A DNA stretch of 64,000 nucleotides from Pseudomonadales bacterium (GTDB lineage Bacteria > Pseudomonadota > Gammaproteobacteria > Pseudomonadales > Oceanobacteraceae): the NCBI GenBank assembly GCA_965197005.1, contig OZ239982.1, positions 1,456,322-1,520,321 on the forward strand, read 5' to 3'. The translations under genes and the position numbers were made by a program. Below the pieces are notes generated by a model. It did not search any database. It had not been told where the DNA came from and worked only from the letters and a program-made list of their open reading frames with translations. Positions 1,164 through 49,201 of this stretch are shown in pieces. Every line of letters starts with the position of its first letter. The first letter of the stretch is position 1.

Positions 1164-4100
1164 ATGAACGGTAAACGACAACATATTTCACAACAGCTCA
1201 ATCGTCGGGTTAAGATTTTAGGCTTAATCACGATTATCTCTGTTGCTACTGTAATTATTATTGCCTATACCTCTTTGTTATTTCAACAAAAAGATCGTTT
1301 TATCAGTCTTAAAAACAGCTCTGTATTAGAGGTTGAAAACTACCTCTCTGATGTTTTTTCTAGCTTACAATCCATTAATGACGCGCTGATGGTTTCTGAC
1401 GATAAGGCAAACTTATTAAACATTGCTCTAAGTCACAGAGAAAAAATCAAAGAAGTCTATTTAATTGAGAACAATAAAATCACCAGCTCGAGTAGCTATA
1501 TGTTGCGAGACATTAATTTAGCAGACAAACAATTAGCCAGCTGGTTAGCCAATTCATTTTCCAATGATGTGTATATGAGCCAGCCTTTTTTTGACCACAA
1601 TACCATTCCATATATCTATATTGGCACCAAAACCCGTAATGAAAGCAGCCAAGTCATACAAACTTTGGTGGCACGCTTAGATTTATCTAACCTTTGGGTA
1701 TATCTCAATCGTTTGGATTTAAACAAACAAGCAAGCACGGTTATCTATGATAAATCTGGGCGTATTATTTTGCATTCAAACTTACAAACTCTAAATAATA
1801 CTCGCTATATTGATAAACTATTTGATAACCCCGAATATACCGAGATAACAGATTTAGCGTTAAAAAGAAGAAATAAAAATCAGTTTTTTCTCCTAACAGG
1901 ACAACGCATATCCAGCACGACCTGGTATTTAGCTATTGAATACTCGCTTAGCAGTGTCACCAGTGTTTTTCTGCTGTCTGTTTTAGTGTTGGCTTTATTT
2001 TTCTCTTTAATTATTTTCTTGATTTATCAAATCAATCACTTTACGAGTAAAAAAGTCATTGAACCTATTTTTTTATTGCAACGTGGTGTAGAAGAATTAG
2101 AGGCAGGCAACTTAAATCATCGTTTAAATGATTTTGGCAATAATGAATTAGGTTATATTGCATTAGTGCTTAACAAGCTCTCATCTAGGTTATCTAACAC
2201 CTTGGCAAATTTAAACCATCGAGTAAAAGAGCTCAACACCAATAAACAAGCCTTAGAAAAAAGTGAAGCCAACTATCGCTCAGTGGTAAACAATGTAAAA
2301 GAAGTGCTCTTTAATACAGATCCTCAGGGTCGTTGGCAGTTTTTAAATCCCGCATGGGAAGAGATTACAGGTTTTAGTGTAGAAGAAACCTTAGGCAAAG
2401 ATATTTCTGATTTTATTTATGATGAAGATGTAGAGCACTGTTTAAAAACCTGCCATCAAATTTTAGGCTGTAACCTAGACTCTTATGAAGGTGAAGTTCG
2501 AATGTTGAAAAAAACAGGCGAATATCTATTTATGCAAATTTTTGCCAGCCCTTCATTTGATGATGCAGGTCATATTTTAGGTGTAACAGGTGTATTAAAT
2601 AATATTACAGAGCAAAAACTGGCACTCAAACAACTAAAACTGACCTCCAAAGTTTATGTTAATGCTCGTGAGGCGATTATCATTGCCGACCATGATGGTT
2701 TTATTGTTGATGCCAACCCTGCTTACAGCAGTATTACCGGTTATGAGATTAATGATGCCCTCACTAAAAACATTGGCATTGAAAACAACAACCTTAATCC
2801 CATTCACTTTAAACAAACGGTTTTAGAAGAAGCAAATCGTGTTGGCTACTGGAGTGGAGAACTAGAACAGACAGACAAAAACGGCAATGAATTTGTTATT
2901 CAGCTTACCATCAGTGCCATTACTGAAGGCAATAAAATACAAAACTATGTCGCCCTTTTCTCTGATGTTACAGAAAAATTTGAATATAAAAAGCAGCTTG
3001 AATACAGCGCTCATTATGATTCACTGACCAACTTGCCTAACCGTATTTTACTGGCACAAAACATAAAAGAAGCAATGGCAAAAGCACTACATGAAGATTA
3101 TCAAATTGCCATTTGCTACTTAGATTTAGATGGTTTTAAAGAAGTGAATGATATTTATGGGCACAATACAGGCGATAAACTGCTGATAGAAATTGCCGAA
3201 AACATCAAACAAACATTAAGAAAGCAAGACTTTATTGCTCGCCTTGGTGGTGATGAATTTGTGGCGGTTTTAATTGATATAGAAGAAGAAGCCTGTAAAT
3301 CTGTCCTTATGCAGCTACTGCAAACGGTCTCTCAACCCATGCAGGTTAACCATGAGCGTAAAGTACAAATTTCTGCCAGCTTAGGGGTCACTTTTTACCC
3401 ACAGCAGGGCGATTTTGATGCGGATCAACTGCTGCGCCAAGCTGACCAAGCTATGTATCAGGCAAAAATCTTAGGCAAAAACCGCTACCACTTTTTTGAT
3501 ACCGATAAAGACCGTGACTTACGGGGTATGAACCAAATTTTAGAACAAATTGCTTTAGGCGTTCAAAAACAAGAATTTGTACTGTTTTATCAACCCAAAG
3601 TCATGATGAAAACAGGCGAAGTCATTGGCTTTGAAGCCCTTATACGTTGGCAACACCCAGAGAGAGGACTGCTCTCACCTTTTTATTTTTTAGACCCTCT
3701 CAAAAATCAGCCTTTATCTATTGAGGTAGGCAACTGGGTAATTAAACAAGCCATATCACAGTTATCCACTTGGAATAAAAACGGCTTTAAAACAACCATT
3801 AGTATTAATGTAGACAGTTACCAGCTACAGCAAAGTAACTTTATCGCCTCGTTTATTGCTATTTTAAATGAGTATCCTAATGTGCATAACTCACAGGTTG
3901 AGTTTGAAATTTTAGAAAGTAACGCCTTAGAAGATATTTCATCAGTTTCACAAGTGGTGAAAGACTGTCGTGATATGGGGATACATTTTGCGCTAGATGA
4001 TTTTGGCACAGGTTTTTCCTCTTTATCTCATCTTAAAAACCTACCCGTACGCGACCTTAAAATTGACCGTAGTTTTATACGTGACATGCTTGAAGACCTT

Positions 4101-44297: not shown

Positions 44298-44660
44298 TGC
44301 TGGACTGAGGACTGAGGACTGAGGACAGAGGACAGAACCATGCTCCGCATGGTGCTGGGCAGGGGGCAGGGGTCAGAGGTCAGGGGGCAGGGGTCAGAGG
44401 TCAGGGTTCAGGGTTCAGGGTTCAGGGTTCAGGGTTCAGGGTTCAGGGTTCAGGGTTCAGGGTTCAGGTTTCAGTCCTCAGTCCTCAGTCCTCAGTCCTC
44501 AGTCCTCAGTCCTCAGTCCTCAGTCCTCAGTCCTCAGTCCTCAGTCCTCAGTCCTCAGTCCTCAGTCCTCAGTCCTCAGTCCTCAGTCCTCAGTCCTCAG
44601 TCCTCAGTCCTCAGTCCTCAGTCCTCAGTCCTCAGTCCTCAGTCCTCAGTCCTCAGTCCT
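44298..44660 (+). repeat. Composite heptanucleotide repeat block
   Basis: Read in order: CTGAGGA x3 and CAGAGGA x1 (44305..44332). Hairpin ACCATGC-TCC-GCATGGT (44337..44353). (CAGGGGG CAGGGGT CAGAGGT) x2 (44360..44401). CAGGGTT x9 (44402..44464). CAGGTTT x1. CAGTCCT x27 (44472..44660), which is the inverse complement of the CTGAGGA units. Confidence 0.95.
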
Positions 44661-44663
44661 CTG

Positions 44664-44828: not shown

Positions 44829-45234
44829 AAACTGGTTTTTATACTTTGTTTTAATGCTCTTTTTGCTGCTTTTTAAAAATGAACAGAGTATAAAAATAAG
44901 GTTGGACACATGGGTTTATATTGAGATTCTCTTTGTTTTTTCTGCTTTCTGCTTTCTGCTTAAAAACCTTAGCGAACCGTCGATTGCGGTTGTTGTTTGT
45001 CTATAACTTTGTTTTCTTCAAAGTATTGATTGTTGACTTGTTTTACCCTTTTTCATCTTTCATCTTTCTTTATTGATGATAGCTGAAGTTTGGGGTTATA
45101 TGATCAAGCCTCACGGGCAATTAGTATCAGTTAGCTCAACGCCTCACAACGCTTACACACCTGACCTATCAACCAGTTAGTCTTACTGGGCCCTACAGGA
45201 CTCTCTAGGAGTCAGTGAGATCTCATCTTGAAGG

Positions 45235-45268
<34 letters not shown>

Positions 45269-45327
45269 TGTCCGAACGTAGCTACCCGGCAATGCGTCTG
45301 GCGACACAACCGGAACACCAGTGGTTC

Positions 45328-45359
<32 letters not shown>

Positions 45360-45436
45360 TCTTCTCAAATCTCATACGCCCACGGCAGATAGGGACCGAA
45401 CTGTCTCACGACGTTCTAAACCCAGCTCGCGTACCA

Positions 45437-45469
<33 letters not shown>

Positions 45470-45471
45470 GG

Positions 45472-45514
<43 letters not shown>

Positions 45515-45543
45515 ACCGCCGTCGATGTGAACTCTTGGGCGGT

Positions 45544-45599
<56 letters not shown>

Positions 45600-45600
45600 A

Positions 45601-45642
<42 letters not shown>

Positions 45643-45720
45643 ATGTACGTCTCGCAGTTAAGCTGGCTTGTGCCATTACACTAACCGTATGATGTCCGAC
45701 CATACTTAGCCAACCTTCGT

Positions 45721-45763
<43 letters not shown>

Positions 45764-46025
45764 ACCCACCACACAGTGTCCTCGATCTGGTTTACAGATC
45801 TGAGTTAGAACCCCAAATCAATCAGGCTGGTATTTCAAGGACGACTCCACGCAAACTGGCGTCTGCGCTTCTATGTCTCCCAGCTATCCTACACAAATTA
45901 ATTCAAAGTTCACTGTGAAGCTGTAGTAAAGGTTCACGGGGTCTTTCCGTCTAGCCGCGGGAATGCTGCATCTTAACAGCAATTTCAATTTCACTGAGTC
46001 TTAGGTGGAGACAGTGTGGCCATCG

Positions 46026-46107
<82 letters not shown>

Positions 46108-46129
46108 TTGGGCTTCGATCAAGAGCTTC

Positions 46130-46728
46130 CCCAGCACCTAAATTTTCTGTTTCTCTAATGCCTTGCTTTCAATTAAATTTGTCTGTTATCCAACCTCTTT
46201 ATTCCTCTTCTGGAATTTAGGGGCTGGGCAAGCCCAGACTTTCTTTAATTATTTGCATCATCTTAATGCCTTGCTTTCAATTAAATTTGTCTGTTATCCA
46301 ACCTCTTTATTCCTCTTCTGGAATTTAGGGGCTGGGCAAGCCCAGACTTTCTTTAATTATTTGCATCATCTTAATGCCTTGCTTTCAATTAAATTTGTCT
46401 GTTATCCAACCTCTTTATTCCTCTTCTGGAATTTAGGGGCTGGGCAAGCCCAGACTTTCTTTAATTATTTGCATTAGTACTTGTTTTGTTTTCTTTGTTG
46501 TTTGAGTCTTTGTTATTTAGTTCTTTTAGCTAAATTCCATTTCTGAAATGCAGTTTCTAAATAAACTCTTAGCTTTTAGCTTTTAATAAAAAGATAAACT
46601 CTATCTAATTATAAGTGCTAAATGGCTTGCCCAGCCCCTAAATTCCATTTCTGAAATGCAGTTTCTGAACTTCCACTTAATTCAAACAAAAAGAAAATAC
46701 TTACAAGTAAAAAAATTTAGGTGCTGGG
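46130..46728 (-). other. 599-nt non-coding insertion at the apex of 23S helix 68 (IVS or expansion segment)
   Basis: E. coli reads GGGGTTA-GC-GCAA-GC-GAAGCTCTTGATCG here. This gene reads GGGGTTA-[599 nt]-GAAGCTCTTGATCG. The block is closed by a perfect 16-bp stem, 46130..46145 (CCCAGCACCTAAATTT) with 46713..46728 (AAATTTAGGTGCTGGG). Confidence 0.8.
46156..46475. repeat. Three perfect tandem copies of a 108-bp unit inside the helix-68 insertion
   Basis: TAATGCC anchors at 46156, 46264 and 46372. Copies are identical by eye, and the third is truncated at about 46475. Each copy contains CTGGG-CAAG-CCCAG, which is a CUUG tetraloop hairpin in rRNA sense. Confidence 0.9.
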
Positions 46729-47410
46729 TAACCCCATCAATTAACCTTCAAGCACCGGGCAGGCGTCACACCCTATACGTCCACTTTCGTGTTTGCAGAG
46801 TGCTGTGTTTTTAATAAACAGTCGCAGCCACCTGGTATCTTCGACTGGTCTCAGCTTACGCAGCAAGTGCTTCACCAAAACCAGCGCACCTTCTCCCGAA
46901 GTTACGGTGCCATTTTGCCTAGTTCCTTCACCTAAGTTCTCTCAAGCGCCTTGGTATTCTCTACCTACCCACCTGTGTCGGTTTTGGGTACGGTCTCTTT
47001 GTATCTGATGCTTAGAGGATTTTCCTGGAAGCATGGCATCAACCACTTCGGACACCGTAGTGTCACCGTCATCAGTTCTCGGCCTTGTGATTCCGGATTT
47101 GCCTAAAATCACAGCCTACTACCTTAAACACGGACTACCATCGCCGTGCTGGCCTAGCCTTCTCCGTCTCCCCATCGCAATACAAAAAGGTGCAGGAATA
47201 TTAACCTGCTTCCCATCGACTACGCTTCTCAGCCTCGTCTTAGGGACCGACTCACCCTGCCCCGATTAACGTTGGACAGGAACCCTTGGGTTTCCGGCGA
47301 GGGGGTTTTTCACCCCCTTTATCGTTACTCATGTCAGCATTCGCACTTCTGATACCTCCAGCCTGCTTCTCAGCTTGACCTTCAACGGCTTACAGAACGC
47401 TCCTCTACCG

Positions 47411-47878
47411 TTCAGAAGACTGAAGACAGTAGACTGATGACTGATTGCTTAACCCCAACTCTTGTGCAAGCCCGTTAACATTTTTGCTATGTCTTGGTAT
47501 GTCTTACGCCAAGACTGCCATGTCTCGTTGCTAATGTAGCCAAGATCCAAACTGTATCTTGTCCACACTCGCATCTCATCGGCTGAACCTATCGCCATAC
47601 TTAAGTAGCGTTTAAATTCAGCTTTGGATATGCGTTGCTTGCCATAGCCTTCCGCTATGTTTGCACAAATGCCTTTACTGGCTCTACGCATTTGATCTGC
47701 TAACCCATTGAGTTGTTCGTTCTTAGGAAATCTTAAGCTTGTTGTATGTACTTCTAAAGAAATCGCATACGCTTTCTTAAACACTTCTAAGTCTTCAAAA
47801 CTTTTTATTGAGTTAACTGGATTTTGCGTCCGTTGGTGTTTCATCTGTCTTCTGTCCTCTGTCTTCAGTCCTCTGAAC
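47411..47878 (-). other. 468-nt intervening sequence in 23S helix 45, carrying an ORF
   Basis: It replaces the E. coli helix-45 cap (CAACAACGCATAAGCGTCGCTG) between CTCTACCG and CCGTAGCTTCGGTG. The flanks TTCAGAAGACTGAAGACAG... and ...CTGTCTTCAGTCCTCTGAA form a 19-bp stem, in which the single mismatch becomes a G.U pair in rRNA sense. Confidence 0.85.
47449..47844 (-). CDS. Four-helix-bundle protein of the 23S rRNA intervening-sequence protein family (the misnamed S23 ribosomal protein family)
   Basis: 131 aa, same sense as the rRNA and lying entirely inside the helix-45 IVS. The sequence (FEDLEVFKKAYAISLEVH...ANIAEGYGKQ...KAEFKRYLSMAIGSADEMRVW) fits the family as I remember it. Confidence 0.85.
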   Translation of the reverse strand: MKHQRTQNPVNSIKSFEDLEVFKKAYAISLEVHTTSLRFPKNEQLNGLADQMRRASKGICANIAEGYGKQRISKAEFKRYLSMAIGSADEMRVWTRYSLDLGYISNETWQSWRKTYQDIAKMLTGLHKSWG

Positions 47879-48488
47879 CCGTAGCTTCGGTGTACAGTTT
47901 TAGCCCCGTTATATCTTCCGCGCAGGCCGACTCGACTAGTGAGCTATTACGCTTTCTTTAAAGGATGGCTGCTTCTAAGCCAACCTCCTAGCTGTCTGTG
48001 CCTTCCCACATCGTTTCCCACTTAACTGTAACTTTGGGACCTTAGCTGACGGTCTGGGTTGTTTCCCTTTCCACGACGGACGTTAGCACCCGCCGTGTGT
48101 CTCCCGGATAGTACTCTGTGGTATTCGGAGTTTGCAAAGGGTTGGTAAGTCGGGATGACCCCCTAGCCTTAACAGTGCTCTACCCCCACAGGTATTCGTC
48201 CGAGGCGCTACCTAAATAGCTTTCGAGGAGAACCAGCTATCTCCGGGCTTGATTAGCCTTTCACTCCTATCCACAAGTCATCCCCTCATTTTTCAACATA
48301 AGTGGGTTCGGTCCTCCAGTTGATGTTACTCAACCTTCAACCTGCTCATGGATAGATCGCCCGGTTTCGGGTCTAATGCTAGCGACTATTCGCGCAGTTA
48401 ACACTCGGTTTCCCTACGGCTCCGCTATTCGCTTAACCTTGCCACTAACATTAAGTCGCTGACCCATTATACAAAAGGTACGCCATCA

Positions 48489-48554
48489 CCCCGCCACCAA
48501 ATGTCTTTTGTCATTTGTGTCGTTATCAAATGCAACAAACATTTGGTGGCGGGG
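48489..48554 (-). other. Enlarged 23S helix 25 (66-nt hairpin against about 14 nt in E. coli)
   Basis: Perfect 16-bp stem CCCCGCCACCAAATGT / ACATTTGGTGGCGGGG plus an inner stem CATTTG/CAAATG. It replaces E. coli ACGCCTAAGCGTGC between GGTACGC..TCAC and CTGCTTGTACGTACACGG. Confidence 0.8.
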
Positions 48555-49201
48555 CTCTGACTGCTTGTACGTACACGGTTTCAGGGTCTATTTCACTCCC
48601 CTCACAGGGGTTCTTTTCGCCTTTCCCTCACGGTACTGGTTCACTATCGGTCATCTGGGAGTATTTAGCCTTGGAGGATGGTCCCCCCATATTCAGTCAG
48701 GATTTCTCGTGTCCCGACCTACTCGTCTTCATTGTATTATTCCTTTCGTGTACAAGACTTTCACTTTCTGCGGTTGCCCTTTCCAGAACATTCCACTAAA
48801 AATAATACAACTTAAGGGCTGCTCCCCGTTCGCTCGCCGCTACTTGGGGAATCTCGATTGATTTCTTTTCCTCGGGGTACTTAGATGTTTCAGTTCTCCC
48901 GGTTCGCCTCAATAACCTATGTATTCAGTTATTGATAACAGCTTATGCTGTTGGGTTTCCCCATTCAGATATCTTCGGATCAAAGGTTGTTTGCCACCTC
49001 CCCGAAACTTTTCGCAGGCTACCACGTCTTTCATCGCCTCCAGATGCCAAGGCATCCACCGTGCACGCTTAATTGCTTGATCATATAACCCTAAACTTCC
49101 TCATCTACCACAAGTAAAGTAGATGAAAATTAACAGCTCAGGATAACCAAACAATCGCCGGTTCGCTTGAGAATCTCATTTTATATTCTCATGTGTCCAA
49201 A

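Follow-up and report, generated by a model that had tools for sequence, protein, structure and literature searches.

Analysis of a 64,000-nucleotide (nt) window from a Pseudomonadales bacterium (Oceanobacteraceae; NCBI GenBank assembly GCA_965197005.1, contig OZ239982.1, positions 1,456,322 to 1,520,321 of the forward strand) indicates that its 23S ribosomal RNA (rRNA) gene is interrupted at the tip of helix 68 by a 589-nt insert (46133..46721, minus strand). This insert is probably a mobile cassette of the intervening sequence (IVS) type, formed around a small GIY-YIG nuclease gene, which decayed and was partly amplified in this copy and which would be removed from the rRNA by RNase III. The original prediction had described the insert as built from perfect 108-bp tandem repeats with an inverted partner. 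Its make-up proved to be different: the insert is a decayed, hairpin-bounded GIY-YIG cassette, and the repeated unit consists of the 3' end of the nuclease gene, a stem arm and a spacer. All features of the insert lie on the minus strand and are described below in the rRNA sense, with window coordinates unless a contig or locus is named.

The host genome is one closed 2.71-Mb contig of 40% GC with three rrn operons; the operon of the window is called copy A and the two outside it B and C. The window 23S rRNA gene (45100..49082, minus strand) was recognised by Rfam RF02541 as a complete bacterial large subunit rRNA (2720 bits) and measures 3983 nt, against 2925 positions in the model; in the RNA sense, Rfam places a 16S gene on its 5' side and a 5S gene on its 3' side. 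MAFFT alignment to the Escherichia coli 23S rRNA put the insert between E. coli positions 1873 and 1874, in agreement with the helix-68 location first proposed, where it displaces, at E. coli 1869/1874, about 8 nt of the tip of the hairpin directly 5' of helix 69. Helix 68 is an inter-subunit helix. The other extra blocks in this gene are 52 nt at E. coli 545 (helix 25) and 238 and 209 nt at 1163-1186 (helix 45).

All three operons contain the helix-68 insert, each with three 108-nt units, and the copies differ in its centre. B and C hold an intact open reading frame (ORF) in the rRNA sense, which opens MFYVYCIQSLNDESRFYIGSSNNLRRRLREHN... and encodes 88 amino acids counted from the ATG that starts the domain; residues 1-71 match the GIY-YIG domain (Pfam PF01541, E 4.6e-15). 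Alignment of the three copies revealed that in the window about 120 nt of AT-rich filler (46502..46623) stand in place of the first ~66 codons of the B/C gene. Only the last 22 codons are left (46436..46501), as identified by a tblastn-type match at C1:1502757-1502822 and by the operon alignment. This stretch is 77% identical to residues 67-88, has a frameshift upstream and overlaps the first repeat unit, and apart from this 22-residue remnant no other copy of the nuclease gene was found in the genome. A promoter of the gene's own was sought and none was detected, terminator-like hairpins being present only in antisense. The filler holds a 29-32-nt duplicate (46530-46561) of 46638-46669; this is the direct repeat reported earlier at 46530 and 46638, which we could extend to 32 nt with one mismatch. 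The 108-nt spacing of this 29-nt repeat raised the possibility of a second 108-nt array, which we rejected, as the segments are unrelated beyond about 32 nt.

The AlphaFold model of the 88-amino-acid protein (predicted local distance difference test, pLDDT, 85; predicted template modelling score, pTM, 0.72) matched best, among solved structures, Slx1 (template modelling score, TM, 0.60-0.67; probability 1.0; E 5e-3), the plant protein HIGLE, BH0048 and UPF0213 proteins, with I-TevI and UvrC ranking far below Slx1. A sequence profile compared with PDB agreed with the Slx1/UPF0213 matches. The columns of the GIY-YIG catalytic residues (Tyr5, Tyr17, Arg27, His31 and Glu62) are invariant in the family, and the protein is a bare catalytic GIY-YIG domain without a DNA-binding domain.

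The repeats themselves were recovered as first described. Tandem Repeats Finder reported 46156-46474 with period 108, 3.0 copies, 100% matches and a score of 638, and a repeat scan gave three 108-nt copies at 100/100/96%, the last value being lower because the third copy ends early; with a 15-nt partial fourth copy the array spans 46156..46479. A perfect array of three 108-nt copies cannot be due to chance. Each unit contains, in order, the gene 3' end (from about codon 72), GGGCUUG, an L-type arm CCCAGCCCCUAAAUUCC and a spacer of about 55 nt ending GCAAGGCAUUA; it thus begins within the gene 3' end (...KQALMQRIKESLGLPSP) and runs past the stop codon into the spacer. The CUGGG-CUUG-CCCAG hairpin can be read in every unit in the rRNA sense, as had been stated. 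The 24-nt arm TGGAATTTAGGGGCTGGGCAAGCC is indeed found at 46211, 46319 and 46427, each time 100% complementary to 46624-46647. This partner is the inner 5' arm, R1 (GGAAUUUAGGGGCUGGGCAAGCC, 46624..46647), which in the intact copies lies directly upstream of the nuclease gene, as seen in the repeat scan and the three-copy alignment. The same scan identified the inner 3' arm, L2, as copy 1 (GGCUUGCCCAGCCCCUAAAUUCCA, 46427..46450), a perfect 24-bp partner of R1, copy 2 (46319..46342) and copy 3 (46211..46234), the one used in the minimum-free-energy fold. Our analysis also uncovered a basal inverted repeat absent from the earlier description (46127-46146 and 46712-46731, 20 nt, 95%). It is made up of the outer 5' arm L1 (UUACCCAGCACCUAAAUUUU, 46712..46731), a canonical L-type arm of the cassette family that is invariant in 6 of 7 helix-68 composite elements, and the outer 3' arm R2 (AAAAUUUAGGUGCUGGGGAA, 46127..46146), which according to the repeat scan and folding pairs with L1 and extends helix 68. 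No copies of the repeats occur elsewhere in the genome, every match to the insert falling within the three rrn operons, and 22 of the 24 genome-wide matches to the arm motif are inside 23S genes.

Two features of the opposite strand accompany the array. As 108 nt correspond to 36 codons, an artefactual antisense ORF of 104 amino acids runs through it (46156-46479, plus strand; also L011 290-604). The antisense strand also shows one terminator-like hairpin per unit (CTGGGCAAGCCCAG followed by a T-rich run), with 6 overlapping matches across the array units, of 7 in the region scanned, against 1.1 expected; these are probably a by-product of the GC-rich mini-hairpin being followed by a T-rich run.

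The closest relatives of the element (at least 70% amino acid identity) are all located exactly at the helix-68 site: L029 (Methylomicrobium sp. wino1), L026, L068, L070/L071, L072 and L073. They share a layout with four arms, in which L1 CCCAGCACCUAAAUUUU, a spacer of about 85 nt and R1 GGAAUUUAGGUGCUGGG+CAAGCCC precede the gene, and GGGCUUG+L2 CCCAGCUCUAAAUUUCC, a spacer of about 70 nt and R2 AAAAUUUAGGGCUGGG follow it. Among these composite elements the number of synonymous substitutions per site (dS) of the gene is saturated, so the sampled elements are not recent copies of each other, and the ratio of non-synonymous to synonymous substitutions (dN/dS) is 0.04-0.16, which shows that the gene is under purifying selection. 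The spacers diverge between elements and the arms hardly vary, and taken with the low dN/dS this indicates that gene and arms are both under selection. The GGGYUURCCC mini-hairpin covaries between elements (GGGCUUGCCC / GGGUUUACCC).

The original prediction had also inferred, from zero divergence between the units, a very recent amplification or an ongoing change in copy number. The absence of divergence applies to the window operon, but B and C have 2 differing nt in their first unit and 1 in their third: CGA, the codon of the nearly invariant Arg78, stands in the first unit where the downstream units have ATA, and the third has one further single-nucleotide polymorphism (SNP). In the window operon, where the gene is dead, all three units read ATA. 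The distribution of these differences across the operons indicates that the array is real, that it predates the present operon arrangement and its own spread or homogenisation among operons, and that it is being homogenised. Copy number does vary across the element family, with one unit in L070/L071, two diverged units in L026 and three here. In L070/L071 a direct repeat of 10-11 nt, AGGCATTAATG, lies on either side of the single unit. A 119-nt unit is present in L026 in 2.1 copies with a 92% match, in the same register as the window array, and no arrays were found in the other fetched elements.

These data bear directly on the possibility that the array is an artefact of assembly and that the true locus holds a single unit. 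Assembly is difficult where repeats lie within rRNA operons present in several copies, and the related metagenome contig L068 is plainly folded back at this hairpin: L068/L069, an ENA metagenome scaffold of 896 nt, contains a fold-back palindrome that turns at the L2 hairpin of the element and looks like an assembly chimera produced from the inverted repeat. Against this, the host contig is closed, its three operons are separately resolved with three units each, these units are distinguishable in two operons by the 2-nt and 1-nt differences, and the independent assembly L026 has a diverged two-unit array in the same register. We consider an artefact very improbable.

A route to the amplification can be proposed from the boundaries of the unit. 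At its end the window spacer reads ...AAGCAAGGCAUUA, which is a degenerate version of ...AAACAAGCACUA in the gene. Homology for crossover or slippage, giving one, two or three units in different lineages, may have come from an old duplication of part of the gene 3' end. Acting on the gene's own ...AAACAAGCACUAAUGCAA... and on the older partial copy ...AAGCAAGGCAUUA... with which the spacer ends, replication slippage or unequal crossover would have amplified the unit to three copies, and gene conversion between operons would then have spread or homogenised the array.

Folding of the whole insert gave -196 kcal/mol (z = -10.3 against shuffles), and the minimum-free-energy structure is nested, with L1:R2 (17-20 bp) lengthening helix 68 and R1 paired with one L2 copy (24 bp). 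The earlier proposal that the inverted segment could pair with any of the three copies, forming mutually exclusive long-range helices, holds on paper, with constrained folds putting the three L2 choices within 2.5-3.6 kcal/mol of one another. Side-by-side pairing (L1:R1 and L2:R2) was also considered as the main RNA fold and was rejected, being 14-35 kcal/mol worse than the nested fold in every element; we retain it as an alternative or DNA-level state, which is perfect in the relatives. The window insert itself has perfect nested pairs and one mismatch in each side-by-side pair. With no spacer between the arms where they meet, a four-way junction could arise and migrate between the nested and side-by-side states.

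In the IVS-type explanation that we prefer, the family cassette is a single-domain GIY-YIG gene co-oriented with the rRNA and wrapped in a conserved inverted repeat. The lineage represented here is composite, with four arms of one motif around a gene that is intact in B and C and replaced by about 120 nt of filler in the window. In the transcript, L1:R2 and R1:L2, the latter with three near-equal choices, would form a long nested extension of helix 68, and by analogy with the helix-25 and helix-45 IVSs RNase III would cut this extension and remove the insert without religation. The extra units would be tolerated passengers and not parts of the ribosome, and their number would be neutral. In its favour are the site and anatomy of the insert, the intact gene in B and C, the in-sense position of most homologues within rRNA genes, the covarying stem, the common site and layout of the closest relatives, the selection on gene and arms, the duplication in the same register in L026, the nested minimum-free-energy fold, the lack of any intron match, the sporadic distribution and the helix-45 IVS of the same 23S gene. 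Several points weigh against this explanation. Helix 68 is not a classical IVS site, and our literature search found no RNase III processing there. A covarying repeat could equally be maintained at the DNA level, as hairpins or as nuclease-bound terminal repeats. Additional L-arms could be of use to the element, given that all operons have a three-copy array and that L026, in parallel, has one of two copies. Finally, in the relatives L1 is exactly complementary to R1, L2:R2 is exact or has one G-U pair and the nested pairs are bulged, and given these perfect side-by-side pairs nested pairing may not be the conserved state.

A different fate of the transcript would be retention, the insert staying in the mature 23S rRNA as an expansion segment that prolongs helix 68 by 600-700 nt and holds the repeats in a structured appendage. 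The insert does fold far better than its shuffles (z = -10.3) and coaxially with helix 68, and its occurrence in all three operons means that every ribosome comes from an insert-bearing gene. However, conservation is limited to the arms and the gene, with the spacers evolving freely, the insert has a wholly different centre in different operons of one cell, and the element is absent from all sampled relatives. In addition, the same stem closes helix-25 and helix-45 inserts, and IVSs at those helices are known to be excised (PMC2672173). We therefore regard retention as unlikely.

The conservation of the arms can also be read as a function of the DNA. Each unit would then add a recognition hairpin for the nuclease (AGUC-UGGGC-UU-GCCCA-G plus the L-arm) on the non-template strand of a heavily transcribed operon, and copy number would tune cleavage, repair-mediated spread or maintenance. 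The constraint on the arms, which far exceeds the neutral rate, is consistent with such a role, as are the amplification of exactly this segment in two independent elements and the covariation of the GGGYUURCCC mini-hairpin between elements. Single-domain GIY-YIG Ssn nucleases cut single-stranded DNA (ssDNA) beside hairpin repeats that flank their own genes (PMC11893778), and the best solved-structure matches of the protein are branched-DNA nucleases (Slx1 and HIGLE). On the other hand, one unit suffices in most relatives, the published Ssn-related motif (SRM) matches nothing in the inserts, and the unit also duplicates about 55 nt of unconserved spacer, as expected of passive duplication. The balance of this evidence makes a DNA-level role of the units doubtful.

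A more speculative extension, to which we would give a similarly small chance, is that the Slx1/Ssn-like nuclease cuts arm hairpins or four-way junctions and not a linear site, that repair from a copy bearing the cassette pastes it into the tips of rRNA hairpins and that the tandem units are scars of repeated cutting and repair at the L-arm. Where the arms abut without spacers, next to the gene and at the foot of helix 68, a branch-migratable four-way junction could arise, or hairpins could form instead on the displaced non-template strand of the heavily transcribed rRNA operon. If this were true, such a structure-guided homing route would explain the origin of bacterial IVSs and their movement among helices and phyla.

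Returning to the IVS-type cassette, its wider family was identified in a large protein collection, which contained 31 homologues besides the protein itself, 43-81% identical and 83-105 amino acids long. Nearly all of them are on contigs of 0.5-5 kb, as expected because rRNA operons collapse in assembly. About 45 loci were assembled from genomic-context look-ups and a one-genome-per-species scan; insertion sites were mapped by BLAST to the E. coli 23S rRNA, and loci left unmapped were placed by Rfam. Thirty-six of the 42 mapped loci are in sense inside rRNA genes, 33 of them in 23S (BLAST) and 3 in 16S (Rfam), and six further loci, outside the 42, are all at the helix-68 site. The 23S positions occupied are E. 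coli 540/553, 1164, 1703/1773 and 1866-1877. By site, about 22 loci are at the tip of helix 25 (540/553), 12 at the tip of helix 68 (1866-1877), one at helix 45, one around 1703/1773 (approximately helix 63) and three in 16S. Among the hosts are Methylomicrobium, Methylotuvimicrobium, a Bathymodiolus methanotrophic symbiont, Alteromonadaceae, Arenicellales, Lonepinella, Chromatiaceae, Rhodospira, Nitrospirales, Phycisphaeraceae, Desulfobacterota, Chloroflexota and Patescibacteria.

In every case the gene is bracketed by an inverted repeat with the core 5' CCCNGC-NN-CUAAAU ... AUUUAG-NN-GCNGGG 3'. Aligned over 18 distinct elements, this stem forms a 17-bp helix that is 98.4% paired, and 16 of its 17 pairs change on both sides; none of 500 shuffles reached the observed values, and pairing dropped to 37-48% once the partner was slid. 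Because the stem arms were chosen by maximising complementarity, and because inverted repeats can be kept as DNA, the covariation in this alignment shows a conserved palindrome, which is not necessarily an RNA helix. The outer arms of the window insert (46712-46731 and 46127-46146) and the 52-nt helix-25 insert both match the family motif.

The anatomy of the family also bears on the idea of a self-splicing intron with a homing endonuclease. GIY-YIG enzymes are classic intron-encoded homing endonucleases, and NCBIfam gives the protein a weak match to 'group I intron endonuclease', which at E 2e-5 falls far short of the cut-off. Yet no Rfam family, intron (RF00028 included) or other, was found in the insert at the gathering threshold or at E <= 1, in a scan that does detect a group I intron in L027. 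The minimal inserts of the family are about 295-300 nt long and almost entirely gene, so the smallest, of about 295 nt, have no space for a ribozyme; the 88-amino-acid protein has no DNA-binding domain; and the site is the tip of a hairpin and not a conserved core position. An intron is hardly credible on this evidence.

The distribution of the element argues for transfer. In 22 relatives with 23S matches the tip of helix 68 is empty, the flanks being 5-10 nt apart, and no close homologue of the protein was found in 80 genomes of the host family (best E 4e-12, against 1e-48 for the genome itself); in all, about 100 sampled relatives of the host lack the element. IlvC encoded in the window is 82-83% identical to proteins assigned to an Oceanospirillaceae bacterium and a Bermanella sp., which makes the host a marine gammaproteobacterium resembling Oceanospirillales. 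The host 16S rRNA is only 89-91% identical to that of the Methylococcales carrying the most similar element. Absence from relatives together with presence in distant carriers indicates that the element arrived horizontally.

Some of the loci show further combinations of elements. The helix-68 site of Methylomicrobium sp. wino1 (CP024202.1; L029, L047 and L048) holds two different GIY-YIG cassettes depending on the operon, one a 497-nt composite and the other a simple 285-nt cassette resembling that of Lonepinella, with a stem CCCCUCACCUAGAUU identical to Lonepinella's; helix 68 is thus a recurrent target. A third cassette type, of 299 nt, occupies helix 25 in all three wino1 operons. The 23S gene of an Arenicellales metagenome-assembled genome (L027/L035), 4660 nt long, carries a helix-25 GIY-YIG cassette, a group I intron (RF00028, 65.7 bits) and a LAGLIDADG gene, with the extra features at L027 5794-6185 and 6523-6999. 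In L056, a type III hammerhead ribozyme (1959-2014, minus strand; 49.1 bits, just over the gathering score) is located about 1.5 kb from a GIY-YIG homologue that lies outside rRNA genes, yet is flanked by an inverted repeat.

The remaining inserts of the host 23S genes were also compared. The 52-nt helix-25 insert of the window (48497..48548, minus strand) has no gene, and its stem CCCCGCCACCAAAUG / CAUUUGGUGGCGGGG is the same motif and fits the alignment of the cassette family, so that it is likely to be a gene-less relative of the cassette. This site is unlike between operons: the window copy is a 52-nt bare hairpin, and B and C (C1 around 164880 and 1989815) contain a gene-less remnant of about 190 nt with the parts L1 CCCAGCACCUAAAU, GGGUUUA + L2 CCCAGCACCUAAAC and R2 GUUUAGGUGCUGGG. 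This remnant resembles a composite GIY-YIG element that has decayed. The helix-45 insert (47410-47878, minus strand) encodes a 131-amino-acid 23S_rRNA_IVP protein (47449-47844; Pfam PF05635, E 1.7e-29); with the helix-68 insert, this makes two different kinds of gene-bearing IVS in one rRNA gene. A helix-45 IVP gene and a helix-68 GIY-YIG gene are likewise combined in the metagenome locus L072. Two small hairpins at 23S positions 131-175 (window about 48908-48952, minus strand) set operon B (C1:1986125-1990343) apart from A and C by 17 positions, with compensatory changes, and at helices 25 and 68 it is A that departs from B and C. With B differing at the first region and A at the two helices, the three 23S genes form a gene-conversion mosaic. 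Additionally, heptamer arrays (GGACTGA, CAGGGTT and TCAGTCC; up to 27 perfect copies) lie at 44302-44661, just downstream of the 5S gene, and a 14-mer repeat related to them is found at the edge of the helix-45 insert (47844-47875).

To our knowledge, the origin and spread of bacterial rRNA IVSs have remained obscure since their discovery. One closed genome here displays three states of an element, namely intact cassettes in two operons, a gene-less amplified derivative and bare helix-25 hairpin remnants. Together with clear relatives at the same and other helices in distant phyla, these states outline a concrete path from a mobile nuclease cassette to an ordinary gene-less IVS, and they add helix 68 to the places that tolerate large inserts. 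Such inserts also have practical consequences. They break rRNA assemblies, most homologues being on contigs of 0.5-5 kb, they lengthen the 23S gene, they cause rRNA to appear fragmented in quality checks, and they make the rRNA of one genome heterogeneous. Should the nuclease turn out to be specific for a sequence or structure, as the Ssn enzymes are, the family would offer many natural specificities.

Among known systems, the classical 23S IVSs at helices 25 and 45 of Salmonella, Campylobacter and Leptospira are excised by RNase III (PMC2672173, PMC4990558), and Coxiella burnetii has an ORF-bearing IVS at helix 45 (PMC4990558). Like these, the window insert takes the place of a 23S hairpin tip, and its two ends base-pair as a long continuation of the helix (17-20 bp at the base). 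It is sporadic among relatives and heterogeneous between operons and can carry a gene in the rRNA sense, and the same 23S gene also has a helix-45 IVS with a 23S_rRNA_IVP gene. Unlike them, it lies at helix 68 and not at 25 or 45, RNase III removal is presumed here by analogy, the gene encodes a GIY-YIG nuclease in place of a four-helix-bundle IVS protein, and the element has four arms and an internal tandem array. Our literature search turned up no description of IVSs at helix 68 or of GIY-YIG IVSs outside bacteria of the candidate phyla radiation (CPR), nor of a bracketing stem shared across sites and phyla, a four-arm composite or amplification of a module of gene end and arm.

As for the nuclease, the protein resembles Slx1/UPF0213 (YhbQ-like) proteins in its best structure and PDB profile matches and in its invariant catalytic Tyr, Tyr, Arg, His and Glu. 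It differs from Slx1 in being an 88-amino-acid protein without RING domain or partner subunit, the E-values are only 4e-5 to 5e-3, and activity on branched DNA would follow by analogy. Ssn nucleases, which are GIY-YIG proteins of about 94 amino acids, cut ssDNA beside the hairpin repeats (NTS/SRM) flanking their own genes, a repeat-gene-repeat layout that the authors liken to an insertion sequence (Chenal et al. 2025, PMC11893778); rRNA is not mentioned in that paper. The present element shares with them a single-domain GIY-YIG protein of about 90 amino acids (88 here) and a conserved hairpin repeat on both sides of the gene. A regular-expression search with the SRM pattern HGTCWYN(0-2)YYVSBRHN(0-5)WNVSBRGN(0-2)RNCYNB, which does find the NTS consensus, gave 0 matches in the three 23S genes and all fetched inserts and 1 match genome-wide, against 0-5 in shuffles. 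Moreover, Ssn repeats are dispersed in hundreds of copies, whereas those of the present element are restricted to rRNA genes (22 of 24 motif matches). Ssn may thus serve as the nearest working analogy for the protein rather than as an established family for it.

The closest parallel in rRNA genes comes from CPR bacteria, in which GIY-YIG genes occur in non-intron rRNA insertion sequences, as catalogued by Tsurumaki et al. 2024 (PMC11270868), who cite Brown et al. 2015. The terms 'inverted repeat', 'helix 68' and 'H68' do not occur in the passages searched, and the bracketing stem, the composite form and the tandem arrays do not appear to be described there. As in those inserts, a small GIY-YIG gene is found here in an insert of neither intron class, and several sites in poorly conserved hairpins are used; the gene is in sense in a non-intron insert and is bracketed by the family inverted repeat, and our loci include Patescibacteria with members of the same protein family. 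The host of the present element, in contrast, is a marine gammaproteobacterium of free-living type, and the family extends beyond CPR bacteria to Methylococcales, Alteromonadaceae, Pasteurellaceae, Nitrospirales, Planctomycetota, Desulfobacterota and others.

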